Assembly (NCBI GenBank): GCA_044892525.1
Contig: CM097885.1
Span: forward strand, 28,398,001 to 28,462,000
Reading direction: 5' to 3'
DNA from: Schmidtea polychroa
Taxonomy: Eukaryota
Length of the DNA: 64,000 nt
Shown: positions 14,262-44,188 of the stretch, piece after piece
Layout of the letters: each line of letters opens with the position of its first letter
Position numbering within the stretch: position 1 is the first letter of the stretch
Translations under genes and position numbers: made by a program
Notes under the pieces: generated by a model
Seen by the model: the letters and a program-made list of their open reading frames with translations, nothing else
What the model was told of the DNA's origin: nothing
Database searches by the model: none

Positions 14262-15318
14262 TTCAACAACAAACCAACAACTTAGTACCAACAACCAGTA
14301 ACTTATGAACATGTATTAACAACCAGATACCTACAACTAGTTACTAACAACCAGTTACCTGATACCAGATACCTACAACTAGTTACCTGATACCAACTAC
14401 TAACAACCACCTACCCATTAACTAGCTACAACCAGCTAACAACTAGATACCACGTACTAAATAACTCTCAAACAACCAAGTACTTACAACTAATTACCAG
14501 ATACCAAGTACTATCAACCAGCTTACAACCTGATACCAACAACTAACAACCAACTACCAAGTACTTACAACTAGATACTAACAACCAGTTACCTGATACC
14601 AAGTACCTACAACTAGATACCACGTACTAAATAACTCTCAAACAACCAAGTACCTACAACTAATTACCAGATACCAAGTACTATCAACCAGCTAACAACC
14701 TGATACCAACTACTCACAACCAGATAACAACTAACAACCAGATACCAAGTACTTACAACTAGTTACTAACAACTAGCTACCAACTACTAAGTACTAACAA
14801 CCAACATCAACCAGGTACTAAGCATTATCAACCAAGTACTAACAACTAGATACCTAGTTACAAACAACCCGCTAACAACTAACAACTAGATACCAAGTAC
14901 CAGTAAATTACGAACATGTATTAACAACCAGATACCTACAACTAGTTACTAACAACTAGTTACCTGATAGCAACCAACTAGCTACCAACTACTAAGTACC
15001 TACAACCAACATCAACCAGGTACTAAGCATTAATTACCAACTACTAAGTACCTACAACCAACTAACAACCACCTACCAAGTACTAAGCATTATCAACCAA
15101 CTACTAAGTACCTACAACCAACTAGCTACCACCTACAACTAGATACTAACAACCAGTTACCAACTACTAAGCATTAATTACCTACAACTAGTTACTAACA
15201 ACTAGCTACCAAGTACATACAACCAGACACTAAGCATTATCAACCAAGTACTAACAACCAAGTACAAGATACCTAGTACTGTCAACTAGATACCAAACAC
15301 TTACAACCAGATGACCAC
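14262..15318. repeat. C/A-rich mosaic array of short words (CAACTAG, ATACC, AAGTACT, AACAACC)
   Basis: Direct reading; strongly G-poor on the + strand; mirrored at ~23455-24505. Confidence 0.85.
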
Positions 15319-15675
15319 ATTATTGGTTAAATATGAAAATAAGGGTTATAATTAGTTGTTTAGTAAATTATGGTGTAAAATTAAGTAATAAAGCATAAAT
15401 AGGTAAATTAAGGATAAGTAAATTAAAGTTAAAAAATTAAATTAAAGTTAATTAAGGTCCAAATTTTAAAAATAAGTAATCAATGTTCTAAAAAATTAAA
15501 TTAAAGTTAAATAAGTAAATTAAAGTAATAATTTTTAAAGAATTTAATTAAAGTAATAATTTTTAAATAAGTAATGTAATAAGTAAATTAAAGTAAGATT
15601 TTTAATTTTATTATCAAAAGATTGAATAACCACCAACTTTTTTGAGAAATGTAATTTATAATGAAAATTTAAATG

Positions 15676-15800
<125 letters not shown>

Positions 15801-18019
15801 CAACAGTTACCAACAATCGGTTACTGATTATTTTTTAACTAGGTGCTAACAAATACTTACAACTAGATACCACGTACTAACTAACTCTCAAACAACCAGA
15901 TACTTACAACTAACTACTAAATATTCTTCACTGTATTTTATGAAATGCTTTTTAAATTAATATTTTTTATACAGCTTCTATAATAATTTTAATTACAATC
16001 AGTAGAAAAACCTTTTCAAAATGTCTAAATTTAACAAAAATGTTGATTTTCATCAAAAAACCACAACTCAACCACTTTAAAACACCACGTGGAATTCAAA
16101 ATAATTACAATGAAAGACTAATGAATTCTAATTTACAAAACATTCTTCTTTTAAATGATAACTTATTATTGCAAAGTAAAAATCACATTCAATAAATACT
16201 TATTATTGATCAGTTTTATTATATATACTCTGAGTTTATCCGACAGGATGTTTTGACCCCCTAAGGGTACAGGTCGTAAGGGTATTAGTCGTAAGGGTAC
16301 TGGTCGTAAAGGTACTAGTCGTAGGGGTATTGGTAACACTTAACCACAACCTACCCATTAACTAGCTACTAAGTACTAACCACTAGGTTTCAAACAACAA
16401 CTACTAACAACCACCATCAAAACCCATCGAGAAATTAACAAATATCAACCTACAACTATATAACAATCAGTAAACAACACTGTACCAACTACCAAATACA
16501 AGATACCAACAACTTAGTACCAACAATCAACTAACAACACATAAAAATAATAGCAATTAAATACAAAATATTCTTCATCGCATACACTATTTTCTTATCA
16601 AAATCTAAGAAGTCAATCAGATACCAACTACCAAGTACCAAGTACTAACAACCAACTACCTAGAACCAACAACTATGTACTAACAAATTGATCTTTAAAA
16701 GCAAATACTCTTCACTTGAAAAATTGGATGAAAAATTATTTGAACTCAAGGCATCAATAACTTGGTAAAAATTGATTAAATAATTGTAAAAATTTAAATT
16801 ATTCAAAATAAATATCATAAAAATTTAATTAATGGACAAGAAAAAATTCTAATCATCCAATAAATAAAAAAAAATGCTGATCATTCAAGTTGAATCAACT
16901 AAGATAATAAATTAATAAGATAAGATCTAGTAGATAATTGATTAAGATTGAATAAATTAATTTAAATAAAATTAAATTTAATTATTTTTGTAAAAGTAAT
17001 ACATGTACTCAAATTGATTGACTGATTTCTCAATATATTCAAAAAAATCAGTATAAATTCATTACAATTATCAAAGTCAGCAATCTACAATAAAAATAAT
17101 TATCATAAAATTCCAAAAGAGACTAGATAACTAATGATAACATCTAATAAACCAGTAAATTTATTTAAATGACAATAATTGGTATATCCTAGTGAATTCT
17201 CCAATTTCTCATTTCCTCCCAAATATATCAATATGTAAAGATTAGTATTGTAATGATAAATACTTGTTAAAGATCATATATTCACCTCAAACTAACAAGA
17301 TTCCTTAAAATCCCCTTAAATGACTATATTTCTACCCTTAATTCATATTATTACAAATATTTCACTAAAATCATCTAAAAAGCATCAAATTTCCCTGAAA
17401 TAACTCTATCTTTTAAGATTGATATTTTAATGATAAGTACTTGTTAAAGATCATATATTCCCCTCAGACTAATAAGATTGCTCAAACTCCCCTTTAAATG
17501 ACTATAATTCTAACTTTAATTCCTATTATCATACATGTTTCACTATTGATAAAACCGGTTATAATTAACTTTTTGTTAATCACTGTACTCGAAATTTAAA
17601 ATAAATATAACTGACTAGGTCCCATTAAAAGATTAAATTTATCCATTCAATAAAATATATTTCTTCAAATGATCATTTTTACCAATATTCAACCGATTTA
17701 ATTACTAATTAAAATCAAGATTTCTTCCAATAAAGATCAATTTTATTTAGTCGATGTTTTAAGTCCATATTTCTAAACTTTTGTCATTCTCCGCCTAAAT
17801 AAAGATAAAAATAAATTAAAGTTGATATCAATCCCAATTATCTGTAAAGATTTCATTGTCAAAACCAAGTAAATCGATCATTATCCCTACTTAATAAAAC
17901 ATTGTTCTAAATTAATTTACTGTGCATTAATCACAACCTAATAAAACGATATAATTATTATTGATTCATAACTGACTAATGTATTGCAATTTCCTTAAAA
18001 AAACATTGATATTTTACCA

Positions 18020-18370
18020 ACATCACCCTTAAAAAATCATATATTCCCATCGAAACCCTTCCCTCATTAAAAGCAACCGACTATATCTCCCTTACAATAA
18101 TATATTCCCATCTTAACCCATCTCACATTAAATCTAACCGACTATATCCCCTTAAAAGATCATATTTTCCCCATCTTAACCGATCTCTCATTAAATCTAA
18201 CCAACAATATCCCATCTTAACCGATCTCTCATTAAATCTAACCGACTATATCCCTTTAAAAATCATATATTCCCATCTCTCATTAAATCTAATCGATAAT
18301 ATCCCATCTTATCCGATCTCTCAGCAAATATTTCTACCCTTTTAAACATCTATCCGATTATATCCCTTAA
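18020..18370. repeat. Tandem repeat CCCATCTTAACCGATCTCTCATTAAATCTAACC-like (mirror ~20405-20750)
   Basis: Direct reading. Confidence 0.8.
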
Positions 18371-19940
18371 TTTCCCTAAAGATTCCACCCACTTGAACCC
18401 TTTAATATATATCAATCCTCTTAATATCCTTAGAGAACTTCAAAAAGTATGAATTTTCATAAACTGTTAAAGACACCAGGCATTCTTCCATTGAAATAAT
18501 TTAGAAGCTAAATAATAAGAGCCCACTAAAAGATCAAAATTTACTAAAATTTTCTACAAATATTTACCATCAAATACTGGAGATGATATATATTGATTGA
18601 TCATAATTCTTCATCGATTCAACCAATCATTTTCAAGCAATAACAGCAAACTAAATTTCTGTATATCCTACAATAATTATCAAGTAAATTTAAAGTCATT
18701 GATAAATATTCTTAGAAAATTATTGAAAAAAATTATCTAGTCAAATATATTACAAAGTTATCATCAAAAATTTATTCTATCACTTAATTATTAACCTAAT
18801 TGTCAATGAAATTAATTTTTATTTAATAAACTAGTCGTGGCTTGTTACGTAATAAAATAGTTTAAATTACATATCCTTCTCACTTATATTCCACCGATTC
18901 TCATTATCCCACTATTTAATCTCCTATATTCCCCCGATTCTCCATTAATTATTCACTTATATCCCCTTTATTTTCCACTAATTATTCACTTAAAACATCC
19001 CCACAAATATTTGTTTTAAAAGTTTTTTTTTTATTAAATTTATGAATTTTATGAAATAATTTTAAATAAATTCAATTAATATACTTCCATTCTTATCCAC
19101 CTTCTTCTTATCTATGCCACTTCTCATTATCTACCTCCATTAATGGATTATTCTACCAATTATTTTCACCCATTTGAATCGAGTAATGAATAATTTCCTC
19201 ACTTTAATGAAGATTCTTACCACCTTCATTGCTAATTTTATCAAAATTTAAAGAATATTTCTCTTTACATTGCTTACCACTTTAGATTTTTTATCGAAAT
19301 TTGCGATAATTTGACTAATTCAATGATAAATGAGTTAATTAATATATACTCTGAGTTTATCCGACAAAATATTCTGTCCCCCTATGGGTATTGCTCACAA
19401 GGGTACTACTCACATTCAACATGTCGCAAGGGTATTAGTCGTAAAGGTATTTAATGTTTTTATTTGAATTTAGACAAATTTGTTGTTTAAGGTATTGATA
19501 ATTTTTTAGAGTTGATGGTTTTATTCAAGTAAATTTCTATCATTTTTATGAATTTCTATCATTTTTTGTAATTTTCTATTATTTTCATGAATTTCCGTAC
19601 TTTTTTGTGAATATGCGTAATTTTTGTAGATATCTATCATTTTCATGGATTTCTAACATTTTTGCAAATTTCATGTTTATTGAATGAATATTTAATAATT
19701 TCTTGATAATTGGATGTATTTTTATTGACTTGTTTTTTTTTTTTTAATTTTAAATAAAAATTATTTTCAATGAGGTTAATAATTAGAGATTTTACAATAA
19801 TGAAGTGGTAGGATAAATTTTTATGAGGATATTGAATAATTTTCTAAGAATTTCATGTTGACTGATTAAAAGTTTTAATGGTGATAAATTTAATTGATAA
19901 ATTTAGTTAATTTCTTGATAATTAGTTGTATTTTATTGAA

Positions 19941-26743
<6,803 letters not shown>

Positions 26744-27856: not shown

Positions 27857-29445
27857 CAGGGATTGCAAATTTCGAGGAAAATAAAAAAATCGGAATTCGA
27901 AATTCGAAAGTTAAATATATTTCGGAATTCGATCGAATTCCGAAATATTGTAAATTTTTTAAAATCTATACAAATAATAAAAATAACTTATTTGAGATAA
28001 TTTATTGTTATATATTGCATAATATTACTTTTTTTAAAATAAAAATGGAACATAAAATTATATCATTCAAAATGTAATATAAACATGAATGTATTGTACA
28101 CAAATTCAATTATTACATAACAATATAATAATAGTTAAAAATATATTATTTAAAATGTTATATAAACATAAAATTATTGTACAAAAATTCAATTAGTACA
28201 GAAAAATTCTAATATGGCATATCATTTAATAATAAAAAATATAAAATTATTCTTGTGTTTGCCTAAAATATGCTTTAAGAAAGCAGAGATCACTTAAAGA
28301 TGTGTCTCCGAGTCTCGATCGAACTTTTGTACAAAAGATACCTGCAATTGAGAAGGCTCGCTTGGACTCCACGCTCGATGGAGGAATCAAAATCAAAAAT
28401 GAGTAGACAGACTCTAATATTTTGCCACGAACGCCGTTTTCTTCAAAGAATTTCATTTCAGATTTAATTTTTGAAATTAAGATCCGATTTGCTATTTGTT
28501 GAGTTTTGCTGGAATGTATGTTAGACGATAAATTCAATTGAATTTTGTTCTGCGACTTTTGCATTAACGACTGGGGATTGGTTTGTTCTTCCGACATCAC
28601 CTCTTCACATCTTCTGACTGCTCACCTGAGGAAGTTTCCATGTTAGTGTTAAATATCAATCTTTGTGCAAAGCTTTCAATAACTTTGGCTATTGCATTTT
28701 TCAATGTTCGTCTTTGGGTTATTCGGTTTTCTAATTCGTTCTTCAATTTTAATGAAAGTTCATCAGATCCCAAATTTTCAAGCATAAAAGACAATGCCGC
28801 ATCAGCAGAAAGCAGATTTGCATCTTCTCGACAAAGGGCGTCAATAGTAAGCTTCACTGGGAGAAGTGCAGAGATCATGTTGTTAATCGAGAAAATTTCA
28901 GCATCTAGAATAACGATATCAGACTCAATGTCAATCAATGCCTTTCTAACACAGCTTTTTAGTTGGTTAAATCTTTCAAGCATTTCGACTAAGCTATTCC
29001 ATCTAGTTCTAGTGTTCATAATAAGTTTCAACTCTTTTCCAAATTCTTGTTTCACGTATACTTGAAGGATATCATTCGATGTTCTCGAAAAACGAAATTT
29101 CTTTACAATCGAACGAACTTTTTTGATGAGAAAACCAAATCCAAATTCTTCAGTCTTAACATGCTCAGCTTCAATATAAATTTGTTCAATCAAGCCAACA
29201 CTTTCATCATCAATGTATTCCTCATCCTCTGATTTCTCGAAGTCACTTCCTTGTTCTTCTACGCTAACATTTTCTGTATCTGTGTGAGCCACCAATTCAT
29301 CAGTTGTATTCGAATTATTATACAGAACATTAACTACAGCTAAATATATCGCGTGTGCAAAGCACAACTGTTGATTACATAGTAAAAGCCGCCCAACCTT
29401 TTGCATCACAGCTGCCCCATCAGTTGTTATGGACGTAATATCTTT
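27857..29445 (-). mobile_element. 3' portion of hAT transposon interrupted by the Polinton
   Basis: Terminus CAGGGATTGCAAA at 27857 followed by TTCGA/CGGAATTCG subterminal repeats; transposase on the minus strand. Confidence 0.75.
28247..29445 (-). pseudogene. hAT transposase, central and C-terminal part (frameshift near 28600)
   Basis: ITTDGAAVM, CFAHAIYL, TRWNS and the hATC motif PPSSVESKRAFSIAG...KVRSRLGD...CFLKAYF. The first ~16 aa of ORF 28597-29493 are Polinton TIR sequence, not transposase. Confidence 0.9.
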
Positions 29446-30238
29446 AGTAGTGTGGTTATATACCCAACCAAAACAGCCCTCCCAACCAAACATGCCTCCA
29501 AATCACTTAAGCTATTAGAAAAACAACCTAAAACTTATACTTTTATAGTATTTTAACCCTATATTTTGAAAACAACCACCCTTAATGACTCTAACTGTTT
29601 TAATCTTTAAAGCCTCAAACTCAAAAGCTTTTTTTTTTCACTGTCCTCTCAACAGTTTTTTTGATCCGGATCATTTTTTTTTTTATTTCAACCTCTTTCG
29701 TTTATCAAATCTCTTCCAATATACAAGCTGGCCAGACTCATACATCAGAATCAATCCGATAATAGCAGCACGCCTTATTATTCGCTTCTCGCTCACGAAG
29801 TCGATTTCAACGGCGTTTTAAGCGTGCTGCTCGAAAGTACAAATGAATTCGAAAGCGAATCCGAAAGAGGTCCGAAAACAACTGAGAAATAAATGTGCAC
29901 ATTACCGGGATCGATCCGGGGGTGTTCGAAAGACAGGTGGCGATAATTACCGGTTCGCCACCATCACCCGTTTCAATATTTTTTTTTTCATATTTGTGTT
30001 TAAAAAATAATTAATTAATAAAAAAATAAAATAAAATAAAATAAATAAAATAAAATATACAAGTACTTTATAAATCTAAGATACCCACACTATTTTCAAT
30101 ATTATTTTCAAATTTTTAATATTATTTTATGTTGAAAAAAAACTAACCTCAGATGTGATTTGAACCACTATCCATTTGAACCACTGTGCCAGTCTATTCC
30201 CACTGCGCTATCTAGGATTGGATTTTTGTCATTTTTTA
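29446..30238 (+). repeat. Polinton left TIR (~790 bp; lacks a ~190-bp segment present in the right TIR)
   Basis: Reverse complement of 43210-44188 except ~43815-44003. Confidence 0.9.
30146..30217 (-). ncRNA. tRNA-like Pol III unit in left TIR
   Basis: Minus strand TCCTAGATAGCGCAGTGGGAATAGACTGGCACAGTGGTTCAAATGGATAGTGGTTCAAATCACATCTGAGGT: A-box TAGCGCAGTGG, duplicated B-box GGTTCAAAT, T8 terminator (30135-30142). Confidence 0.5.
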
Positions 30239-30464
30239 TACTATAAATAATCGATTCAAGTTCTTTAACTCTTTCCTGTAATTGTTTCATTTTCTTCAAT
30301 CTTATATCAGCAACATCTACAGCCTTCATATAAAAATGTCGATACTTTTCATTATCTACCATCAACTCTTTGATGTATTCTAATGGTTCTTCTTCTCTTC
30401 TTTTCATTCTCTTATGTTTAACTTCATTCAATTCATTTCTCATTCTTTCTTTTAACTCATCCAT
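30168..30464 (-). CDS. Small charged coiled-coil protein of unknown function (Polinton accessory)
   Basis: 98-aa ORF with AAAATG start context, E/K/R-rich helices; C-terminus runs into the TIR. Confidence 0.5.
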   Translation of the reverse strand: MDELKERMRNELNEVKHKRMKRREEEPLEYIKELMVDNEKYRHFYMKAVDVADIRLKKMKQLQERVKELESIIYSIKNDKNPILDSAVGIDWHSGSNG

Positions 30465-30634
30465 TTTTATAAATATTTTTTTATTGGATATATTAATTTT
30501 TGGTAGCTTAAGTTAAAACGTTTTTGATCTTAAATTTCCAAGAGTTGCCGTTGACCAATCTCCTTAAAAATTTGTACAAGTACTAAATCGAGTATGCTGA
30601 TCAATATTTCGTTAAAAAAAAATTTGAAAAAAAA

Positions 30635-30707
30635 TGACCGAAATGGGATTTGAACCCATTGGTATTGGCAATGCAGTCGAGTGCTATTACCACTAAGCTA
30701 TTAGAGC
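30635..30707 (-). ncRNA. tRNA-Cys(GCA)-derived Pol III RNA / tRNA-like gene
   Basis: Minus strand GCTCTAATAGCTTAGTGGTAATAGCACTCGACTGCATTGCCAATACCAATGGGTTCAAATCCCATTTCGGTCA (73 nt): A-box, D-arm, CT-GCA anticodon loop, perfect T-arm ATGGG-TTCAAAT-CCCAT, T8 terminator. The 3' strand of the anticodon stem does not pair. Confidence 0.7.
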
Positions 30708-30829
30708 TATACTCAATATAAAATAAGTTGTTAATGTGTGACTATTTATTGATGAAATTAATAATTAATTATTCATTTTCTCGACAACTACCACTCAGAT
30801 CCATCTGAAAATTTAAATATATACTAAAA

Positions 30830-32070
30830 TCAGTACGCTGAATCAGATTCCGTTGAAAAAAAATATCCCCCCCCAACTCTCCCCAACTTCAGGATCTATT
30901 GCAAACTTAAATCGTAGGGGTGATATAGTTTTTCAATCTCTTCAAACATCAAACCCTATAGATATTTGTAATGCCAAATTATATTATAAAATCGAATTAG
31001 AAATTGAAGCAAACAAAGATATAACCCTAGAAAATAATTTCTTTCCAAATTTATTCTCCAACATGAGATTAAAACTAGGATCATCAGAAATTGAAACTGT
31101 TTTGCATCCGGGAGTATATTCTACAATCTTAAATTTTATTTTGACTGGTTGTGATTATAAAAACTAATATGGTGAATTAACAGGTTGGATTCCTGATGTT
31201 AATAAAGGGGATTTAGATAAAGATGGTTTAGATGTAAACCATGGTTACCATAAAAGAGCTGAACTTTATAAATCTAAAAAATTTGAAGGTTATTTTGAAT
31301 TAAAACACTTGTTTGGATTCCTTCAAAACTATAATCGTATACTTCATAATGTTTTTATAGAATTCATCTGTAATAGAGTAGAAGGTGATAAAAGATTGTT
31401 CTATGGAGCTGTAGATACAAAAGCTAAATTAAAATTATCAACACTTGAATTACATATACCTGAATGGACATTAAACCCACATTCTGAGATTAAACTCCTT
31501 GAAAGATTAAATTCCAACAAGTCTATAAATGTAAATTATTTAAATAGAATCTGTAGTGAATTTAGTATGACAGAGGGTTCAACATATTCTATAAAGGTAG
31601 CAAATTTAGCATACCGACCAAGATATATCTTGATTGGATTCAAAGAAGTAGATTCATCTTTCCAAAAAAATAACAACTTGTTTATTCAAAAGATTGGAGT
31701 TGATAATTTAAAAACAATCCAAATTCAATTAAATAGTTCTTATTATCCAATAAATAGAATGGAATTTAATATTGAAAATAATGAAAACATATTCCCATAT
31801 CTAAATTATATTGAAACATGTTATGATTTCAAAGTTGAACCGCAATTAAGTTTAGAAGATTTCAAAAATTTATATTCTATATTTTGTATAAATGTTTCAG
31901 ACCAAGATGATCGCCTAGCCATAAATAATGTTGATGTTACACTTCATGTAACAAAGGATTCTAATTTTAAAGCTAAAGTATATACATTAATATTAGAAGA
32001 AAAGAAAATAGAAATGAAATTATATGGTGGAAAGATTTCAATAATCGAAAATGTTAGGGGAGATTCTTGA
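30830..32070 (+). pseudogene. Double jelly-roll major capsid protein (hexon-like), with one in-frame TAA at 31165-31167 and a probable 5' frameshift
   Basis: ORFs 30853-31167 and 31309-32070 are in the same frame. Read-through gives YGELTGWIPD...NHGYHKR...LKHLFGF, plus NFFPNLFSNMRLKLG, RPRYILIGF, QLNSSYYP, YSIFCINVS typical of Polinton MCPs. Confidence 0.8.
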
Positions 32071-32099
32071 TATAATCCCTGATATTTTAACATTTTAAA

Positions 32100-33509
32100 A
32101 TGTCTCTAAATAAATATTGGAGATGTGAAAGTTGTAATTGTCAAGTTACAAGACATCATAAAGCAAATCATTTAAAAACTAAAAAACATGCAGGAGGTGA
32201 TCTAATTCCACGAGCTGGAGGCGATTTGCAATCTTCAAAAACAACATCTTCAATATTAAAACCTTTTACTACAGAAAAATATCCAGGTGAAAGACATTTA
32301 TTTAAACACAACTATACTGGACCAGGAACACGTCTAGATATTAGATTAGATGAAAATAATAATCCCAAACAAGGAGAAGAACCAATAAATAGAATTGATC
32401 AAGCAGCTTTAAAACATGACATTGCATACAATTCAACAAATCTTAGAGATAGACATGTTGCAGATGTGAATTTAATACATGATTTAAATAGTATCCAAAA
32501 TCCATCAACCCAAGAAAAGATTCAAAGAGCTCTAGTTAAATTAGCAATGAAAGGTAAGATTTTCATAGGCTTAGGACACAGTCCGATCACCATGGGTGCA
32601 AGACTTCCTAGGAAAGCAAAAGATGTTGCTTATAAAAAGATTATCGAACAAGCAGAGATTGAAAGATCCCTCGAGAGTACAGCCAAGACTAGTTTACAAA
32701 CCCCAACAGAATCAGAAATAAAATATGCAAAGGAATTACACCATGAATTTAGAAAAAATAAAAAATATTTAAAAGTTCAAGTACATGAAAAAGATCAAAC
32801 ATGGTCTGCAGATTTAGTCTTTATGCCTAAATCATCAGACCCTGAAAAATATAAAATAATTTTAACTGTAATAGATTTATATACAAGATTTGCTTTTGCA
32901 AGATGTTTAGAAAATAAAACAGGATATTCTATTACAGAAGCATTTGAAAATATATTTGAAGAAAATCAAAGAATCCCAAAATATTTATGGTGTGATAAAG
33001 GAACAGAATTTTATAACAAAGTTTTTACAAAGTTTTTAAATGAAAATGATATTAAATTATATTCAACAGAAAACGAAGGAAAAGCAGTCGTAGTTGAAAG
33101 ATTAAATAGAACATTAAAAAATAAAATGTGGAAATATTTTACTGATATTGGAAAACAAAAATGGAACAATGAATTGTTACAAAAGATTGTAAATGAATAT
33201 AATAATGATGTACATAGTTCTATAAAATTAACACCTTTAAATGCTTCCATGAAGCCTGAAACCATTAAAGTGGTAAATATTGAAAATGATGTTATTGAAA
33301 AACCAAAGTTTAAAATTGGTGACCGAGTAAGAATATTTAAATATAAAAATAAATTTGAAAAAGGATTCACAGCAAAATGGACAAATGAAATTTTTATTAT
33401 AAATAAAATAAATTATACAACTCCAATAACATATAGCATCTTTGATTTAAATAATGAAAAAATATTAGGTAGATTTTATAATAATGAACTACAGAAAACA
33501 GATTTTTAA
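32100..33509 (+). CDS. Retroviral-like (c-)integrase with N-terminal C2H2-like Zn finger and parvovirus-type phospholipase A2 domain
   Basis: CESC...HLKTKKH; HNYTGPG...PINRIDQAALKHDIAY; DDE core WSADL / LWCDKGTEF / VVERLNRTLK; C-terminal KFKIGDRVRI...FEKG...WTNEIF. Confidence 0.92.
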   Translation: MSLNKYWRCESCNCQVTRHHKANHLKTKKHAGGDLIPRAGGDLQSSKTTSSILKPFTTEKYPGERHLFKHNYTGPGTRLDIRLDENNNPKQGEEPINRIDQAALKHDIAYNSTNLRDRHVADVNLIHDLNSIQNPSTQEKIQRALVKLAMKGKIFIGLGHSPITMGARLPRKAKDVAYKKIIEQAEIERSLESTAKTSLQTPTESEIKYAKELHHEFRKNKKYLKVQVHEKDQTWSADLVFMPKSSDPEKYKIILTVIDLYTRFAFARCLENKTGYSITEAFENIFEENQRIPKYLWCDKGTEFYNKVFTKFLNENDIKLYSTENEGKAVVVERLNRTLKNKMWKYFTDIGKQKWNNELLQKIVNEYNNDVHSSIKLTPLNASMKPETIKVVNIENDVIEKPKFKIGDRVRIFKYKNKFEKGFTAKWTNEIFIINKINYTTPITYSIFDLNNEKILGRFYNNELQKTDF

Positions 33510-33520
33510 GTCGACAAGCC

Positions 33521-34312
33521 CTAAAACAAACTTTTCCATATTTCAGCTTCTTCTCTATCCAAATAAATATAATTATATTTTTCTTTCCAATGATTATCAA
33601 CAAACATATCAAACATATTCTTATCAGGTTCAACATTTGAAAATAAATCATTATAAATCATATTCTTATCACGGCGATCTAATTTAAAAAATATAAAACA
33701 ATTGGAATTATTTCTTATTGAATTTTTATCTAAAGCATAATATGTTTGAGATATATAAATAACATTACAATTATTATGTCGACCTCGTGTAAAGTAACTC
33801 TTTTGAATCTCTTGATTTTTCATATTAACAACATCATCAAATATAACTAGATTCTTTTTATCTTTAGGAAGTAAATCACAATGTAAAACATCTTCAGGTT
33901 TATTAGAGAATAAAACTTGAATTGCCTCCTGCCCTTCTTCACAAATATAATCATTTTTATTACTAATATCTGATTCTAAAATCTTTTCCTTATACCAATC
34001 AACCATATCACAAGGTTGAAAAACTTCTTCAGGACACCTATGTTGATTTTTAAAAATATCAATTATTGCTTTTTTAGTTAATTTATTTTCAAATCCACAT
34101 TTCAAAAGTTGTAATTCTGGTTGATTTATGGTTGTAGAATAAAAGATTAAATTATTATAATCTAAAAAATCATCTTCAAGTAACATTCTCAAAACAAGTA
34201 CATTCTTTCCACATCCAGAAGAACCAACAATTAATAATCTAAAATTATCAGGAAATAACTTATTATTAAATTTACTTTTGTGTCGAGTTAAAATTGGTTT
34301 CCAAATATCCAT
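33521..34312 (-). CDS. A32/FtsK-like genome packaging ATPase
   Basis: Walker A GSSGCGKN, Walker B LVIFDD, FTRGRHNN..YISQ, IRNNS. ATG at 34312 (MDIWKP) preferred over the longer non-ATG start. Confidence 0.92.
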   Translation of the reverse strand: MDIWKPILTRHKSKFNNKLFPDNFRLLIVGSSGCGKNVLVLRMLLEDDFLDYNNLIFYSTTINQPELQLLKCGFENKLTKKAIIDIFKNQHRCPEEVFQPCDMVDWYKEKILESDISNKNDYICEEGQEAIQVLFSNKPEDVLHCDLLPKDKKNLVIFDDVVNMKNQEIQKSYFTRGRHNNCNVIYISQTYYALDKNSIRNNSNCFIFFKLDRRDKNMIYNDLFSNVEPDKNMFDMFVDNHWKEKYNYIYLDREEAEIWKSLF

Positions 34313-34327
34313 TTTGTTTATTATAAA

Positions 34328-34905
34328 ATGACAACTGAAGAATCTTTGCAAGAATTAATAAATTCAAATAAAAATAAATCAGTAGTAATTGATGGTAAAA
34401 AATATTTTATTGGAAAACATGTAAAAGAACAAGTTAGAGCGAAGCTCCACGAAGCTAAAGAAGGTGGCATTCTTCCATTAGCTGCTTTAATACCTGCAAT
34501 CATTGCTGGTTTATCAGGTGCTGCTGGAATAGCTGGAGGAATTGCAACTACAGTTCAAAAAGCTAAAGAATCTCAAAAGACAGACCTAGAAAAAGAAAAC
34601 TACAAACTGAAATCGATTCAATGAAGAAGGTAGGGCAAGCTAAAGGGGGAGTGTCCGTTGGAAAGGGTCTCTATCTTAATCCATATGAGGGGAGTCGGCA
34701 AAAGTCTCAGGGCAAAGGTCTCTATCTTGATCCTTATAAAGGTAGAGGTTTAAATGATTTTTTAAAAAATCAAATTTCTACATCTGAATCTTTATCTTCA
34801 AAAGATAAAGAAGATTTAAAAAAAATATGTAAATCTTTAAAGAATGGATGCCTTTGTAAAACTAAAAATGGTAAAGGATTATACTTGAAGCCCTTCGAAC
34901 TATGA
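34328..34905 (+). CDS. Adenovirus pX-like core protein precursor, split by a -1 frameshift at the A-run 34596-34599
   Basis: EGGILPLAALIPAIIAGLSGAAGIAGGIA hydrophobic segment and three GKGLYLxP(Y/F) repeats. Adding one A fuses both ORFs (DLEKEKLQTEIDSMKK). Confidence 0.7.
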
Positions 34906-34927
34906 TACCATTTTTGATACCATTAAA

Positions 34928-35809
34928 ATGGTATATGAAGAAAGATTAGCACTTTTAAAAAAATTACAATCTGAACAAGATAAATATAATAAAAAAGATA
35001 CAACTCAACATGCTGAATCTATAATATTAAATGAGGTAATAACACAACAACAGGGGCCAACAATTAAAGCTATAAAAGAGTTGGAAGATTTCAATGAGCA
35101 AGCAAAATTTAAAGAGTTAGAAGATAAAAAACAAAAAATAAAAGAACTAGAGTGGCAGGATAAAGAAAAAGAATCCAGTGAAAACCATCCTGAAAGAAAT
35201 CAAAGAAAACGCAGAAGAATTTCTAATGTGGAAGAAGAAGAAATGTTTTTAAAAACAAAAGCTCTTAAAGTTGATCCTAAAATTAGAGATGATTTACCTC
35301 CTTCAATTAGACCCACATTTAATACTAATACTGAAGGATATCAAATAATAACAATTAATAAACAAAACTTTACTTTATATTCAAATTCAGAAAATAAATC
35401 ACGTATTCATTCACAAAATGTTTATAATAATGAATATTTAGACTTTGAATTTACAGATGATTTTTATAGATTACTTTGTGGATATTCTTCAGATGATGTT
35501 GAAGAAATTAAAAAATATTTAAATTTAATAAGATTAATAAGAGCTAGTTCTAAAGCAAAATATATTCAAGATTTAAAGAATTATTTAAATAAAAATGAAA
35601 AGGGTTATGTTGTTACAGAGGGAGAGGGATTAATTAGTGAAGGTGGTAAACCAAATCCCATCAATCTTTTTATTGAATTAAGAAAACTATTAGCTGCAAG
35701 GAAAGCAGGACATAATAATTTAGATTCTGATATTTTAAAGATTTCTAAAGATTTGTTAAAACAAGGAATAATTTCAAAAGATAAATTTAATAAGTATACG
35801 AAGTTATAA
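34928..35809 (+). CDS. Conserved Polinton hypothetical (probable virion) protein
   Basis: 293-aa intact ORF; coiled coil, NLS-like RKRRR, C-terminal GEGL...NPINLFIELRKLLAARKAGHNN motif resembling other Maverick accessory proteins. Confidence 0.7.
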   Translation: MVYEERLALLKKLQSEQDKYNKKDTTQHAESIILNEVITQQQGPTIKAIKELEDFNEQAKFKELEDKKQKIKELEWQDKEKESSENHPERNQRKRRRISNVEEEEMFLKTKALKVDPKIRDDLPPSIRPTFNTNTEGYQIITINKQNFTLYSNSENKSRIHSQNVYNNEYLDFEFTDDFYRLLCGYSSDDVEEIKKYLNLIRLIRASSKAKYIQDLKNYLNKNEKGYVVTEGEGLISEGGKPNPINLFIELRKLLAARKAGHNNLDSDILKISKDLLKQGIISKDKFNKYTKL

Positions 35810-35831
35810 ATACGAAGTTTTAAAATACAAA

Positions 35832-36296
35832 ATGACTCCTTCAATATTAGATTTTTTAAAAACATTTGGAATAAATGCAAAAACAAATTTTGATTTAAAA
35901 GATTATGCAAATTATTTAAATTTAAAAATTAAAATATTAATGAATGATGAATTATCAAGTCTGGAGAGTCCCCTGAATATAATAATCAATTATCAAAATT
36001 CAAATGAAAAAGGATCTCATTGGGTTTGTATATATAAGAAATCTATCTACTTTGATTCTTTTGGGATTAAACCTACTAAAGAAGTTGAAGATTATCTCTT
36101 GAGGGGTTCTCCGATTGATTCCCCAAATGGTTATACTTTTAACTCTTTACAAGTTCAACCTTTGAATACTAAAATATGTGGTATTTTAAGTTTATATGTT
36201 TTGTATAGATTGAATAAGGGAGAGGGAAAGGGGCATACGCAGGATTTTGAATCTATAATTCAAGAAATTTATAATGATCTAGAATCTCTACTATAA
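35832..36296 (+). CDS. Adenain-like cysteine (maturation) protease
   Basis: GSHWVC, YFDSFG, QVQ....ICG (catalytic His/Asp/Gln/Cys). Confidence 0.9.
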   Translation: MTPSILDFLKTFGINAKTNFDLKDYANYLNLKIKILMNDELSSLESPLNIIINYQNSNEKGSHWVCIYKKSIYFDSFGIKPTKEVEDYLLRGSPIDSPNGYTFNSLQVQPLNTKICGILSLYVLYRLNKGEGKGHTQDFESIIQEIYNDLESLL

Positions 36297-36344
36297 GGAT
36301 TTTTACTATAAGGATTTTTACTATATGAATTTACTACTAAAGAA

Positions 36345-37109
36345 ATGGAGCTTCACAACCCTCCGGAAGATAATTTAAAAAAAATGGTAAACATAATGTC
36401 AGATAAATATTCAAGAACTTTATCTATAAATTCAAAAGAATCAGAGTTTACTATAAACTTTCAAGATTCAATTAAATTAGATCAAAATTTAAATTATGAA
36501 TTGGGGCTATTATGGTTTTGTGCTTATAATACTATTTTTAATATAACTAAAGATAATAATAAATTTACTATTCAAACTCGTGATGGGCATAAACCAGAAA
36601 TTATAACAATAGAACCTGGGGCATATGAGATAAAAGATTTAAATGATATACTTTCTAAAAAAACAAATGAAGGTATTAAAATTAAAATGGATATACCAAC
36701 TTCAAAATGTGTAATGACTTTGAAGAATATAAAAATTAGTTTTTTAGATAATTGTTTCTTTCACACAGTTTTAGGATTTAAACCTATGGATATAACAATA
36801 AAAGAAGATAAAATAATAACATCAGAAAATATTATAAAAATAATAAATACAAACACAATAAATATTCATTGCGATTGTATAACAGGTTCTTATAATAATG
36901 GTAAACAAACAAATGTTTTATATTTCTTTCCCTCAAACACAGTTCCTATGGGATATAAAATAGTTGAAAGAATGAATCCTCCAAATTATTTACCTTTATG
37001 TAGAAAATATATAATGGATATTAATTTTAAAATTCTTAATCAAGAAGGAGAATTGATTGATTTTAATGGAGAAGAGATTTCAATGTATTTACATTTGAAA
37101 CAGGTTTGA
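36345..37109 (+). CDS. Minor capsid protein (penton-like single jelly roll)
   Basis: IEPGAYEIKDLN, NIHCDCITGSYNNG, PMGYKIVE...YLPL, NQEGELIDFNGE motifs of Polinton minor capsid proteins. Confidence 0.85.
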   Translation: MELHNPPEDNLKKMVNIMSDKYSRTLSINSKESEFTINFQDSIKLDQNLNYELGLLWFCAYNTIFNITKDNNKFTIQTRDGHKPEIITIEPGAYEIKDLNDILSKKTNEGIKIKMDIPTSKCVMTLKNIKISFLDNCFFHTVLGFKPMDITIKEDKIITSENIIKIINTNTINIHCDCITGSYNNGKQTNVLYFFPSNTVPMGYKIVERMNPPNYLPLCRKYIMDINFKILNQEGELIDFNGEEISMYLHLKQV

Positions 37110-37133
37110 AGATTCATTTTAAATTATTAATTA

Positions 37134-38144
37134 ATGAGTTCTTATATTCCATGTAATAGAGGTGGTGGAACAATAAAAACAGGGTTTAATACAGAAGAAA
37201 TATTAACTTTAACAGAAAATAAATATATTAATGAAAGAGGTGATTCAATGAAGGGTGATTTAATTTTAAATGGACACAAGATAAAAGAATTATCTTTTCC
37301 AACTGATGAAGCTGATGCAGTTAATAAGAAATATGTAGATGGTGTTAAAAAATATACTGATTTAACAACAACAAGAATTGAAAGTTCATTAACAACAAAA
37401 ATTGATTCAATGGAATCAAAGCTTAATAATATCGAACAACGATTTAATGATAAATTTGACAAGTTACAAAGTCTGTTAACTGAACAAGTTGTAAAGTTAA
37501 ATACTGCTATATTAAATTCTAAAGATAAACAAATTATGAATACTAAATTTAATACAATATATAAAATAATAAATGAGATGATTACATCATTTAATAAAAG
37601 AATTTCAAATTTAGAGTCTCATGGAACACACATTAACACCACACGTAGTATTAGAAAAAGAGCTGCTGAATTAGAACAGAATAAAACATTATTACCCCAT
37701 ACATATAAACATTTTATAGAACCAAGTTTAATAACAACAAACAGTAAAGAATGGGGTGTTTTTATGGTTGTAAAAATTATTGATCCTTATTTCTTTTTGT
37801 TTGATGATGATAATGAAAGAATGAAATGGTTTGTGAAATGTGATTATAATAGTAAGCTTGAAAAGGGTGATGTTATAATGACTAGTTATGATTTACCACA
37901 CGGAGATTGGTATGTTAATACTCATTCACATGGACTACATAAAGTTAAAAGTAAGAATATTCATTTTTCTAGTTCACTTGTACAATATATAGATTTAATA
38001 TTTTATGAAAAAAAGGTTGATGTTGATGAAGTTCGTAAAGCATTGAGAGAATTGTATAAAGATATCCTCTCAACAAGAGTTTCTTTTGATATCCGAGTAT
38101 TGGTGCCAGATGGTGCTCAGAAGAATAAAGTCTTATTTTTTTAA
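37134..38144 (+). CDS. Putative fiber/spike protein
   Basis: GDSMKGDLILNGHKIKELSFPTDEADAVNKKYVD (tail-fiber / trimeric adhesin neck-like motif), long coiled coil, RSIRKR, then a globular C-terminal domain; directly follows the penton gene. Confidence 0.6.
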   Translation: MSSYIPCNRGGGTIKTGFNTEEILTLTENKYINERGDSMKGDLILNGHKIKELSFPTDEADAVNKKYVDGVKKYTDLTTTRIESSLTTKIDSMESKLNNIEQRFNDKFDKLQSLLTEQVVKLNTAILNSKDKQIMNTKFNTIYKIINEMITSFNKRISNLESHGTHINTTRSIRKRAAELEQNKTLLPHTYKHFIEPSLITTNSKEWGVFMVVKIIDPYFFLFDDDNERMKWFVKCDYNSKLEKGDVIMTSYDLPHGDWYVNTHSHGLHKVKSKNIHFSSSLVQYIDLIFYEKKVDVDEVRKALRELYKDILSTRVSFDIRVLVPDGAQKNKVLFF

Positions 38145-38152
38145 TTATTAAA

Positions 38153-38746
38153 ATGGAAGAAGTAAGAGAAGAAAAAATTTACCCAGAATTGAGATCATCA
38201 GGATATTATTCTTCCAAGGTCTCGGCTCCCACAGAACTTGAAATTATGAGAGTAAAAGAATTTAAATCAGAAACCTTACATTTACAAGATTTTTTAAAGC
38301 ATTATAAAAAAATTAAAAATAGATGGAATAAAGGGAATACAGTTTTAAAAGTTATAGGTTATTCTTTAGGATTTGCATCTGCAATATTAACAGTTATTTT
38401 ACCCATAACTTTACCAGTTGTTACTCTTGCACCTATAATACTTGGAAGTATTTCTGTGGCTGATGGTTTCTTAACTGAAATAGTTTCATTATCTTATACT
38501 TCTAAAAAGAAAAGTTTATATAGAGAAGTTTGTTTATCAATAGAATTAGGAATCTCTAAATTATTTTTATTTCAATTAAAAGCTTTAGAAGATGGAATCT
38601 TAACTGATGATGAAATAATGAAATCAAATCAAATAATTCAAGATATTAAAAATGAAGTTATAAAATTAAAAAGTGCAAATATTATAACTAATGAATATTC
38701 TAAAAAAATTAAACGAGACAAGTGGTTAAAGAATTCTTACTTATAA
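38153..38746 (+). CDS. Polinton membrane protein (hydrophobic hairpin)
   Basis: KIYPEL start motif, hydrophobic stretch VIGYSLGFASAILTVILPITLPVVTLAPIILGSISV, KALEDGILTDDE motif; 3' end may be frameshifted. Confidence 0.7.
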   Translation: MEEVREEKIYPELRSSGYYSSKVSAPTELEIMRVKEFKSETLHLQDFLKHYKKIKNRWNKGNTVLKVIGYSLGFASAILTVILPITLPVVTLAPIILGSISVADGFLTEIVSLSYTSKKKSLYREVCLSIELGISKLFLFQLKALEDGILTDDEIMKSNQIIQDIKNEVIKLKSANIITNEYSKKIKRDKWLKNSYL

Positions 38747-38832
38747 AATGGATGAATTTTTAAAAAAGTAGATCAAGTTGCTATAGTTGCTTAAATTAAT
38801 TGTCGACATTTTATTATTAAATATCGTTGGTT

Positions 38833-41800
38833 TCAGTTATGGTTGAAAGCCAACCTATGAATCATTAATTTATGATCTTTAAATTCTTTATCACTTAGAC
38901 CTTTTATATATTCAGAATCAGTATTAAAATATTTAAGTTCTAAACATATAGGATTAAAAACTTGAGAACATAAAGGTTTCTCGATTTCTCTCTCGGGATA
39001 AATAATTTCAACATTATAAATATCAAGATCAGTAATCTTTGTATCATATAACTTATTCAACTTTTCTAGATTTTTTATTATAGGGATTAAATTATTTCCA
39101 ATAGGTAGAGTTGTCTTTAAATCACTTAGTATGAATCTCTTATCATCATAATTTGATAATGATACTTTTTGAGATTCTATCAAGTGAATATCATGGTTTT
39201 CACTTTTAAGTTGATGTATTTCATCAATTTTATCTTTATGATTTGGATTCAATGTATCTATATAATCTTGATGAGAAAGATTCTTTGCAACCACTCTCTG
39301 TATTCCTTTACATCTCTTATCCTTTACAGGTTTTTCTTCTTGTCCCTCTGGTCCTTTAGGAAATATAGGATATCTATGTGTAATGGTTTCTTCTGTTTCT
39401 GGAGTTTTAAATATAAATGATCTAGTTATAAATTCAGGGTTTCTAAATGTTTCGTATGAATATTGTTTAGCACGAATAAATATTCCATTTTCTATAGGAG
39501 TAAAAGGTTTTTCATCTTTAAACGAAAATAGTTCTCCAGATGAATTTATTAAATTTGAAAGTATAGGATTTTCTTTCATATCTTTTTGTAAATCATGAGT
39601 TCTTATTGTTAAAAACATTGAATCTGTATCCATTGCATGCATTGATATATTTGCTCCGTATATAGGTTGTAAGATGTTATAATATGTTTCATACATTTGT
39701 AATTTTGAAAGTTCTAAAATTGTAAACCCTATAAATATTGGTTTGTTATATGTTTTCTCATAATTTTTTAATTCTACTGCAGTAAGATTTTCAGAAAATA
39801 CTTGTGCGTTTTTAAATGTAGGCTTTCCTAGCATGCGATTATAACGCTTAATATCTTTGGTAGTATTTGTTAGGAGTTCAATATGAGTATATTTATCAAC
39901 ATTCTCCATTGTTTTCCCAAATACTGAATTGTTTAAAAGTTTATAATTATTATCTTTAAAAAGGTTACCTTCTCTTTTTGCAATGTTTCGACACCTAATG
40001 TTCTCCTCGATGAAAGCTTTCATGAATGGAGCTTGTTTAAATCTTATGACACTATGAACTTTTTTTAATATCATTCCTCGTGAGAGATAAAATTGGAGGA
40101 GTCTATAGTGACAAAGATAAAACCTTCGATCTGTTTGATCACAAAGAAGTTTCATTGTTGGAGGTTTATCTTGTGAGATTTGCCATTCAGAAAGTTCGTT
40201 GATATCAATCTTTCTTCTTATGGGAGCTAAAGGAAAATATCTTGTTCCTGATTTTATATCATCTGGATAGTCGAGGTCACATTCTATAAAGTAACCTATT
40301 GGAGAATCTTTCGATGTTGAAAGTATTTCTTTCATAAGGTCATCTGTTGGGTTCTCTATTTCAGTGAAATCACTCATTGGTAAATATTGAGTCATAATTC
40401 CTGAATATAAAGCTGTTGCATCTATATAAAGTATAAATATAGGATTTTTCATTGTTTCTAATAATTCTTTTAATTCCTCATTGTTAATTTTCATATATGG
40501 ATCATCAGGGTGTTTAGATAGTCTTCGGCTAGTAGTTATTGCATTTCTAGCTTTTATTTCTCTATTCCCCATTACTGAAGAGACTCCTCTAATGTTTGTT
40601 TTAATTTGGTTAAACATATCGAGGTTAGTTAAAAGATCTATAATTTTATCAGCATCTTCTATATTTGAAGTGCAAATGGTATATAACATAGTATCCCAAG
40701 CTAAAGAGGGTGCAGTTATATAATTATAAGGTTTAAGAACAAAAGAGTTTGTAAATTCTTCAAAGCAATCTGCTAGAATATAAACATCTAAGGATAAATG
40801 CATGTTGGTATATTCTCCTAAAGTTTTACACTTGAATAATTCCCACATTTTAATGCTCGAGAATATTCTTGATCTGTAATCCCTGATTGTAGTAAGTTTG
40901 AAAAGAAATCTTCTTTGTTAGGAAGACTTGTTTCATTATATCTTTCAAACGAGTCAACATAGTCATAAGGATATATTCCTTTTGCTAAGCATGTAGGATA
41001 TTCTTCTGGAGGAATATTATTTTTTTCCAAGAATTCTCGAGTGATTTTAAAATTTTCTGGTTTCATTGTTTTTGCTACTGCATCTAGAGACATTTGGAGA
41101 AAGTTTAACGAGTCTATAAATTTTAATTTTCCATATTCAACTGATTTATATTTTTCCTTTGTTAAGCCGATAACTTTGAAAGAGTTTTTAGCATTTGCTG
41201 CTAAATGTTTAATAAATAGATGTATGTCATATCCAAAAAGATTATGAAATATAACAGGTATAAATTTAGGAGTATGGCAATTAAGATTGCAATTTTTATG
41301 AGCTGCTCCTCGATAATTATTTTCCTTTTTTAAATGATCATGATCTATAACTTTTTCATCAGGAAGAATATTCTGTTTACACATCCAACAGTTGGAAGTA
41401 TTTTCATATTCTTGTTGTTGTTGATTAGAAATATTTTGAGGATACTTTGTTTTTAATATTTTAAATATTTCATGTTCTAGATCATTTATATTTTTAGTAA
41501 AATGATTCAAGACTTCTTCAGGGGTACCTCCTAGAATTGAATATTCTCTAGATTCTATGAGTTCAGGATAATTACTTTTAAATAATAATTTATAAGCAGA
41601 TGGTAATTGTTTAGTTTTTTTAACACTATTAAATTTATTTCTTTTTCTTAGAAAGGCTTTCATCCTCTCTGGTTTCATCTTCTCTCCTGAGGAGTTCCAT
41701 AAATCCATGAGTTTATTTTTTTCTATTATTTTTAAATATTGATAAACCAAATCTTGTTTATGGTTTATAGATTCAAAGTCACCATAAAGAACTCCAACTG

Positions 41801-43163
41801 TTTGTAGTAAATTTGAAAAGTTTTTAAAATACATCTTGGGATTATTAGGCATTTTAATTAAAGCTGGATCATCTTTTTCACAAAATCTTGTATGTTTAAT
41901 CATAGAGTTTTTAGTTGTTGAATAATGAAGACATCTTTTACATGTTCCTCCTCCACTAGTTGGATTCTCTGGAGATGTAAAAGCTTGAAAGTTTTTTATT
42001 AAAACATAATGTTGATTATTTTCTTGTTCCAAGATTAAAAGATATATCTCGTTGTCCTGTGCTCCGTTATCCTTGGTTCCACTATCTGAAATATAAATTG
42101 GAATAATTTCTTTCCCTATAACATGTTCATAAATATTAAGTTTAAGATTATTTAATTTTTCAAATTCTGGAATGTCTTCTAGTTTCATTGGGTGTTTGAA
42201 TCCTTTGGGAAATATTAATTCATTTTCATATTGTTTGTATTTTGAAACTCTTTGGGGATTTGTTGCTTGAGGATGTAAATGTGCAAGTATTGACCAGATG
42301 AAACATTTGTTATCATTATTCTGTACATTTATAACATTTTTAGATTTAAAGGGTGTAGGAATATAAGATTTAGGATTGGGTGGTAATCCTCTCCAATAAT
42401 CAATCACTAAAGTTTGGAAAGAGTTGAATACTAAGTTTGAATCTCCTAATTCATTTTCTACTTCCTCTTGTTTTGCTTCTGCTGCTTTAATTATTTCTTT
42501 GATGGTTTTATCAAATCCTTTAATTGAAAATAAATATTTAAAAGGTATTCCAATTTCAACATCTAAGGGTGTTGTCTTTTCTTCTGCTCCTCGCCAGTAT
42601 TTTGCTTTGATTATAATTTTATATTTTATAACATTATACCTTGTCGGTTTATAATTTTTTAAAGCTTCAGTGAAAGAATTTTTAATATTTTCTTTATTTT
42701 TATTTATATATTCTCCAGGAGTTGCAGGCCCATTAATTTTTAATTGAAATTCATCTATATGATTAAAATTATCCCAGTTATATTTTTCTCTTTCAACATG
42801 ATCAGGTTCTCCTTCTGAATGACATTCCTCATCGTCAGAATTTTGTTTTTTATTTTTACATTCTTTTATATGTTCTAAATAATAGAAATTTAGTTTTGTT
42901 GAAAAGTTACAATGAGGACATGTAAATATTTCTCTATTTTTCCCGATACAATTTTCAAAATGTTTATTATATCCAGAATGTAGAAATCTTCCTTTACATT
43001 TAAGACAAAGTTTTGAATTTTTATCATTAAGATTATTTTCTTTTAATAAATGAGCTTTCGATTTTAAGTGAGAAATTAATCCAGTTTTATTTTTAAAAAC
43101 TTTATTGCAAATATTACAATTCATTTTTAGAAAAAAAATTTTTATTGGATACCCTGTTTTCAT
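38833..43163 (-). pseudogene. Protein-primed family B DNA polymerase (pPolB), split by a one-base frameshift at ~40848-40851
   Basis: ExoI YGDFES, ExoII FHNLFGYD, ExoIII DVYILAD, motif A YIDATALY, motif B KLLNNSVFGK, motif C DTDS. Adding one A restores RALKMWELF across the two ORFs. Confidence 0.93.
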
Positions 43164-43209
43164 TTTATTTTTTAAGATTTATATTATTCATTTTTTATAA
43201 TAAAAATTT

Positions 43210-44188
43210 TAAAAAATGACAAAAATCCAATCCTAGATAGCGCAGTGGGCTAGACTGACACAGTGGTTCAAATGGATAGCGGTTCAAATCACATCTGAGG
43301 TTAGTTTTTTTTCAACATAAAATAATATTAAAAATTTGAAAATAATAGTGTGGGTATCTTAGATTTATATTTTATTTTATTTATTTTTATTTTATTTTAT
43401 TTTATTTTATTTATTTTATTTATTATTTTATTTTTTAAACATAAATATGAAAAAAAAAATATTGAAACGGGTGATGGTGGCGAACCGGTAATTATCGCCA
43501 CCTGTCTTTCGAACACCCCCGGATCGATCCCGGTAATGTGCACATTTATTTCTCAGTTGTTTTCGGACCTCTTTCGGATTCGCTTTCGAATTCATTTGTA
43601 CTTTCGAGCAGCACGCTTAAAACGCCGTTGAAATCGACTTCGTGAGCGAGAAGCGAATAATAAGGCGTGCTGCTATTATTGGATTGATTCTGATGTATGA
43701 GTCTGGCCAGCTTGTATATTGGAAGAGATTTGATAAACGAAAGAGGTTGAAATAAAAAAAAAATGATCCGGATCAAAAAAACTGTTGAGAGGACAGTGAA
43801 AAAAAAAAAAAAAATACCACTGTCCTCTCAGAGCAGTTTTACTATTTTCATAAAATTTTTTATTCTTCAAGACATCAAGATTAAAATTTCATTTATTTTT
43901 TTTAATTAGCCAATTAGCAACTTGCTAGTTGGCATCCTCAAGTAGCCTTCTAACTTTTTCATAATACCATTTTCTTTTCTATTCTCTTTATGTTTTTAGT
44001 TTGAAGCTTTTGAGTTTGAGGCTTTAAAGATTAAAACAGTTAGAGTCATTAAGGGTGGTTGTTTTCAAAATATAGGGTTAAAATACTATAAAAGTATAAG
44101 TTTTAGGTTGTTTTTCTAATAGCTTAAGTGATTTGGAGGCATGTTTTGTTGGGAGGGCTGTTTTGGTTGGGTATATAACCACACTACT
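43210..44188 (-). repeat. Polinton right TIR (~980 bp)
   Basis: Reverse complement of the left TIR plus an extra ~190-bp segment. Confidence 0.9.
43231..43302 (+). ncRNA. tRNA-like Pol III unit in right TIR
   Basis: A-box TAGCGCAGTGG at 43238-43248, B-box-like GGTTCAAATCAC at 43281-43292, T8 at 43305-43312. Confidence 0.5.

Follow-up and report, generated by a model that had tools for sequence, protein, structure and literature searches.

Two distant families of Polinton (Maverick) elements in the genome of Schmidtea polychroa share, inside their terminal inverted repeats (TIRs), the predicted promoter signals of a tRNA-length RNA polymerase III (Pol III) unit, designated U1, and do not share a fold of the RNA that this unit would encode. 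The unit was analysed in a 64,000-nucleotide stretch (GenBank assembly GCA_044892525.1, contig CM097885.1, positions 28,398,001 to 28,462,000 of the forward strand), referred to as the window, and its features and those of its carrier are collected in Table 1. Since the Pol III signals are kept and the tRNA fold is lost, U1 likely acts as a landing pad on the DNA, next to a larger and folded candidate RNA gene that is probably transcribed. The reading we prefer, to which we give an even chance of being right, is that U1 is a cis-acting Pol III unit that would keep the TIR chromatin open, its short RNA being probably disposable.

Table 1 Features of the Polinton element and of its putative Pol III module, in positions of the window
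Feature	Position	Strand	Remarks
Polinton/Maverick element (family W)	29446-44188	.	AGTAGT termini, 6-bp target duplication ATCTTT
Left TIR	29446-30238		about 270 bp shorter than right TIR
Right TIR	43210-44188		
U1, right copy	43231-43312	+	tRNA-length type-2 Pol III-like unit, 82 nt
U1 A box, TAGCGCAGTGG	43238-43248	+	at tRNA position 8; 81% mean identity to 21 old-family copies
First B-like copy, GGTTCAAAT	43265-43273	+	non-positional; part of 16-bp tandem repeat
U1 positional B box, GGTTCAAATC	43281-43290	+	32 nt after A box; per-position identities average 94%
T8	43305-43312	+	predicted Pol III terminator
U1, left copy	30135-30217	-	A-B spacing 33 nt
Candidate structured RNA gene, ~370 nt	43468-43840	+	ends inferred; covarying helices, A-rich tail, hairpin, T4
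A-like box of structured stretch	43478-43488	+	
B-like box of structured stretch	43521-43530	+	spacing 32 nt
Left copy of structured candidate	29629-29970	-	3' end cut short
U2, Cys-like unit	30635-30707	-	in segment 90-95% identical to host rDNA intergenic spacer
First ORF of split polB region	40818-43163	-	start 68 bp upstream of U1, head to head

The carrier has the four hallmark genes of a Polinton/Maverick, with Pfam matches to polB, rve integrase, A32 ATPase and double-jelly-roll capsid (PF03175, PF00665, PF04665 and PF21738), together with long TIRs, AGT-type termini and a 6-bp target duplication. It belongs to a family, here called W, that is present in more than a thousand copies in the host genome. 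An AT-rich motif upstream of the polB region (43170-43195) is also found 5' of the capsid gene start, in other copies as well as in sister elements with short TIRs, and is a possible shared promoter element. At 30867-30875 the window is missing about 230 bp of the other copies, with a tRNA-like unit (U3) and the capsid gene start. A 298-aa frame without Pfam match (28597-29493, minus strand) extends out of the left end of the Polinton, and is presumably a DNA transposase split by the Polinton insertion. The window also contains a large near-perfect inverted repeat (about 12300-26600; arms 13395-18829 and 19944-25375, 99-100%), which is full of short tandem repeats.

Both copies of U1 lie where the initial annotation had placed them, with the A box at tRNA position 8 and T8 at the end, and their predicted layout is that of a type-2 Pol III gene, with A and B boxes at tRNA spacing followed by a T-run. 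The identity between the TIRs is continuous up to 43210/30238, i.e. 21 bp upstream of U1, in agreement with the roughly 20 bp first reported. The B box had been described as a tandem duplication, and the duplication is there, but only its second copy sits at the tRNA distance; this copy is taken as the positional B box because its distance from the A box (32 nt in the right U1 and 33 nt in the left) matches that of the host tRNA-Cys gene (32 nt). Of 40 sampled copies, 36 have two units of the 16-bp repeat that includes the first B-like copy, 2 have a single one and 2 have three, with a third B repeat; the A-B spacing is halved in 2 of the 40, and some TIRs contain two or three U1 copies in tandem. 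Nine aligned Polinton units all have an A-B spacing of 31-33 nt and a run of at least five T after the B box. The A-box/B-box/T-run pattern has three matches in the window (both U1 copies and the internal Cys-like unit, U2), whereas 150 local Markov resamples gave 0.0 matches on average, and reversed control patterns had no matches genome-wide. The sequence of U1 is distinct from that of the Cys-like unit, as had been noted, but the two have in common the spacing and a tRNA-derived D-loop signature, which is also present in U3.

In contrast to the promoter signals, the tRNA fold is not retained. ARAGORN called no genes in the window and 30 further loci, and an Rfam search of the window at E ≤ 10 placed only the Cys-like unit above the gathering score (32.4 bits), with no call for U1, for the downstream stretch or for the VA families. 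Set in the tRNA register, the window U1 forms 4 of 7 acceptor pairs and 2 of 5 T-stem pairs, and the nine aligned units reach at most 4/7 and 3/5, respectively. U1 was rejected as a tRNA gene on the basis of these missing calls and of the unformed acceptor and T stem of the cloverleaf. Its predicted fold is no better than that of shuffled sequences (z = -0.38 and -0.18). The pairing proposed between CCTAGAT and ATCT(G)AGG is possible in the allele of the window only, 11 of the 26 intact W copies having a different 3' sequence, and the 3' arm of the proposed stem occurs as three non-compensating alleles (in 15, 10 and 1 of these 26 copies). VA RNAs are described as molecules of about 160 nt with a terminal stem, a central domain and an apical stem (PMC7589676); with neither this architecture nor a stable or conserved fold, U1 itself is poorly supported as the VA-like RNA that it had been suggested to be. 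A 20-mer from U1 has 1691 exact matches in the genome, and the 40 places sampled (the first 40 non-tandem ones among 100 listed) are all in family W TIRs, so that U1 is not a free SINE; a tRNA-derived SINE was ruled out by this distribution and by the T8 directly after the tRNA-like head.

To compare the unit across families, we used an old family, O, which is decayed and whose proteins are about 40-60% identical to those of family W. The unit in family O is orthologous to U1, and behind it come a T-run, an AT spacer and the GC-richer cassette that family W also has. Between the window U1 and 21 O copies (30 were fetched, and 9 left out as near-duplicate or truncated), the boxes show identities of 0.81 (A) and 0.94 (B; from per-position values for 43281-43290, an interval shifted by one base giving 0.87), and the 7-nt 5' flank one of 0.73. 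The values are 0.30 for the middle of the unit, 0.43 for the first B-like copy and 0.44 for the 3' part, and the rest of the TIR lies at 0.50-0.61 (0.50 for the AT spacer and 0.52-0.61 for the GC part). The boxes are far better kept across the families than the U1 middle or the surrounding TIR; boxes conserved no more than their surroundings, which the initial annotation had named as counter-evidence, were not what was found.

Because family O was first found through the A/B pattern, the test was redone from the cassette side; the O copies had likewise been retrieved with a query containing the unit. A cassette-side pattern, selected against the commonest W variant, gave 28 places, in 21 of which both boxes are present, 28-38 nt apart; among these 21 are 6 near-identical duplicates and 7 W variants. 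In the remaining places the boxes are closer (1/28), the A box is cut (1/28) or the sequence breaks off upstream (5/28). In one place (L196/L286) the signals are the same but the middle differs again, which makes a third unit type. Another (L191) was considered as a cassette without a unit and rejected, since a family-W terminus immediately precedes it and the copy is probably cut off. A 24-mer from the downstream cassette has 2661 exact matches in the genome; in the first 30 family-W cassette places, a sample that overlaps the 40 above, the upstream U1 is intact in 26, damaged in 3 and interrupted in 1.

Units of the U1 type are present in both TIRs in both families, and the link between unit and cassette is constant, while the outward orientation is particular to family W. 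In family O the module reads inward, with the terminal AGTAGT hairpin shortly upstream in several copies, and the cassette stops just before the integrase start or points toward polB; some O copies have a polB-like fragment upstream of the unit instead. A gene-less O derivative of about 1.3 kb (G000:C1:222351307-222352253; L167/L168) has inward units at both ends, doubled at one. We also surveyed 15 capsid-gene loci chosen for divergent length or frame, covering 9.9 kb at the capsid-side end. Four of these are family W, and in the 9.9 kb of the other 11 the A/B unit is absent; the capsid proteins of these sisters are 90-98% identical to that of the window, and their ends are different and short. 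The outward-pointing units bracketing the viral genes, as first proposed, do not represent a conserved design, being inward near the terminus in O and absent from 11 sisters at the end examined. Since these 11 elements lack it there, U1 is dispensable and the module is optional for Polinton spread. The sisters (L106, L108, L109, L111-L117 and L120) have the capsid gene in common and differ in their short ends, most with an internal inverted terminal copy, and Polinton ends look interchangeable between lineages.

Searches were also made beyond this genome. No relative was found for the ATPase among viral contigs, and 58 ATPase homologues were retrieved without genomic context. The A/B pattern occurs in 2 viral and 83 metagenome stretches, of which 82 were fetched and none matched the element by tblastn or blastn; of the pattern matches in such stretches, 72 of 86 are ordinary tRNAs.

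About 160 bp after the T8 of U1, a second tRNA-type head begins on the same strand, at the start of the candidate structured RNA gene, and U1 and this stretch form a head-to-tail module that is conserved in families W and O. The predicted fold of its body (~305 nt) has a z of -4.3 on the U1 strand, versus -2.4 on the opposite strand. In an alignment of 13 W and O copies, 87% of the cells pair in the structure derived from W, and there are 24 two-sided changes, versus 9.6 in shuffles and 4-8 in slid controls. Because these cells reflect about five fixed between-family changes, and because the number of pairs with a two-sided change (10 versus 6.9; 41/500) is not striking, the covariation support for the predicted helices is good but not overwhelming. 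In a first alignment RNAalifold recovered only part of the helices, as the old copies are decayed. These results suggest that the structured stretch, rather than U1, is the better candidate for a VA-like or TMER-like RNA. Of the VA-I/VA-II-like pair put forward initially, the head-to-tail arrangement remains plausible, but the partner of U1 would be this ~370-nt stretch and not the Cys-like unit. The stretch also includes a pre-miRNA-like hairpin of ~60 nt.

The Cys-like unit is most likely captured host DNA, judged by its similarity to the rDNA spacer, and most likely not the VA-type partner of U1. All 7 rDNA repeats with a covered spacer contain the segment with U2 and U3; an eighth stretch that was retrieved (L305) has neither 18S nor this segment, and several W left ends are without U2 and U3. 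Neither the U1 core nor the cassette occurs in the rDNA spacer sequences examined. A single Polinton-born array of U1, U2 and U3 was also considered, and was dropped when U2 and U3 proved to be rDNA spacer. The spacer (L284, 7252-8300; L295, L297, L299, L301, L303 and L306) contains degenerate tRNA-like units in a row. These are of three types, have their boxes at tRNA spacing, and lie some 3-4 kb upstream of 18S, in the orientation opposite to that of the rRNA. Elsewhere in the host, the segment of the spacer that bears the Cys-like unit recurs in diverged form (about 82%) in a 1245-bp tandem array (L101, 7794-9345), and the tRNA-Lys, tRNA-Arg and tRNA-Cys genes are found in long tandem arrays (L071, L094 and L170; periods of about 424, 278 and 281 bp).

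Contig cover from sequencing runs was also inspected, including contigs of two runs from one study that we treat as putative RNA, which is a guess, as no run is recorded as such. In these two, the left U1 is covered at a contig depth of 270-2100, which drops to 0 in the next upstream bins (30220-30343), the cover stopping in the bin that holds the 5' end of U1 (30189-30219), whereas two DNA-like runs have the full TIR depth in the first bin upstream of U1 and lower depth beyond. At its peak in the putative RNA runs, the structured stretch exceeds the depth of U1 about 10-25 times, whereas the two are level in DNA. The putative RNA cover runs past T8 and, in run X2, is nearly continuous from the 5' end of U1 into the structured stretch, except for a repeat tract (30003-30064). 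Runs X3 and X4 have no cover over U1 and carry no weight either way. Since contigs cannot show strand, start or level, the edge at the 5' end of U1 is only a weak hint.

According to the mechanism that we propose, U1 likely binds TFIIIC and TFIIIB, and would be transcribed by Pol III into a short and probably disposable RNA. Selection would keep the 5' flank, the A box, the spacing, the B box and the terminator, which are read by TFIIIC, TFIIIB and Pol III on the DNA, and the sequence and fold of the RNA would be free to drift. A TFIIIC site with a B box alone needs less than an A box, spacing and terminator, and U1 retains all three of these beyond its B box. The boxes of the candidate structured-RNA gene downstream are weaker, and Pol III occupancy at U1 would help this gene to remain active once the element has integrated; in family W, such occupancy may also keep active the head-to-head polB promoter, 68 bp away. 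The same occupancy may hinder the spread of host silencing, with barrier activity as a compatible side effect. The structured stretch may not need U1, however, since it has predicted A-like and B-like boxes of its own, with a spacing of 32 nt.

U1 and the downstream stretch could also be two functional small-RNA genes, a VA-I/VA-II-like or TMER-like pair in which the U1 RNA serves as a decoy in trans. The head-to-tail order of two Pol III-like genes is that described for VA RNAI/II (PMC7589676), a single tRNA-like RNA of MHV68 is described as partly rescuing a TMER knock-out (PMC4337559), and the conserved terminator and the doubling or tripling of U1 in some TIRs count in the same direction. 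This pair is nevertheless unlikely, given that U1 has no stable fold, that its middle is 30% identical across families and that three non-compensating 3' alleles coexist in W. The near-continuous cover in run X2 would also agree with U1 serving as promoter for a longer read-through RNA that takes in the structured stretch, as a TMER-like single gene, but we regard this as highly improbable: T8 and further T-rich tracts lie between the two, and the structured stretch has a tRNA-type head of its own and the much higher peak contig depth given above.

Barrier activity of tDNAs is established, and U1 might serve chiefly as a chromatin barrier that separates the viral genes from host heterochromatin, independently of the RNA gene downstream. 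Its presence in both TIRs of both families fits such a role, as do the similar degenerate units with the same spacing that are fixed in the host rDNA spacer (7/7 covered repeats), some of which family W acquired beside its capsid gene. We consider this quite unlikely, because the position and orientation of U1 relative to the viral genes vary by family, its position relative to the structured stretch is fixed, and sister elements spread without the unit. The dispensability of U1 in these sisters and the capture of host spacer DNA by family W could rather point to a functionless passenger, left over from an ancient capture of a tRNA or of spacer DNA; the uniformity of U1 within W says little in this regard since the family is young. 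The box-specific conservation between families with proteins only about 40-60% identical makes a relic improbable; moreover, the third unit type keeps the same signals despite another middle, and U1 is not in the rDNA spacer.

The module resembles several known systems in part. The putative module resembles the adenovirus gene pair for VA RNAI and VA RNAII, in which two Pol III-type units with A and B boxes and a T terminator follow one another head to tail across a short spacer (PMC7589676), and the Polinton is similarly a PolB/double-jelly-roll DNA virus-like carrier; unlike the VA genes, U1 is about 80 nt long without a conserved fold, and its module is located in TIRs. The TMERs/vtRNAs of MHV68 are, in the account cited, tRNA-like Pol III units clustered at the genome end, with a tRNA-like head followed by long hairpins, an arrangement that has its predicted counterpart here in the downstream stretch and not in U1; they are mutually similar in sequence and structure and co-transcribed with miRNAs, whereas U1 has no cloverleaf and its T8 follows directly (PMC4337559). 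In Leishmania, the boxes of a transcribed tRNA-like unit are described to drive a neighbouring U2 snRNA gene, and U1 may similarly be a tRNA-like unit with boxes A and B serving an adjacent small-RNA gene in cis; the Leishmania case is a host locus with a tRNA-Ala gene divergent from that of U2 snRNA, whereas here the units are in tandem and inside transposon TIRs (PMC4950102). Helenus and Cassandra (TRIMp3) are reported to carry tRNA-derived Pol III boxes in both terminal repeats, mostly without a functional tRNA, but these are non-autonomous LTR retrotransposons, whereas the Polinton is an autonomous DNA element bounded by inverted repeats, and its U1 ends in a terminator (PMC10886601). Among Polinton relatives, tRNA-type sequences are described in Polinton-like and MELD viruses, where they are called by Rfam or ARAGORN, unlike U1, which is called by neither (PMC12220804, PMC8502044), and codon compensation has been proposed for such viral tRNAs (PMC12220804). 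In our literature search no paper described non-coding units of the Pol III type within animal Polinton TIRs, although Repbase entries could already annotate these repeats, and a search combining VA RNA and polinton returned nothing.

A bolder scenario, which we hold to be possible though doubtful, is that a VA-like Pol III gene pair evolved independently in the TIRs of animal Polintons, with U1 priming or partnering a hairpin-rich RNA of ~370 nt that would act against RNA silencing by the host. The module would have moved between distant families as an invertible cassette, and its gain would have helped family W to exceed a thousand copies, its module-less sisters being rarer.

If transcribed, the module parallels the design of adenovirus VA RNAs and herpesvirus TMERs, and would constitute a testable answer to the question of how a Polinton, once integrated, remains active in the face of host silencing. 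A natural comparison is available within one genome, with close sisters that have or lack the module and an older family in which it is inverted.
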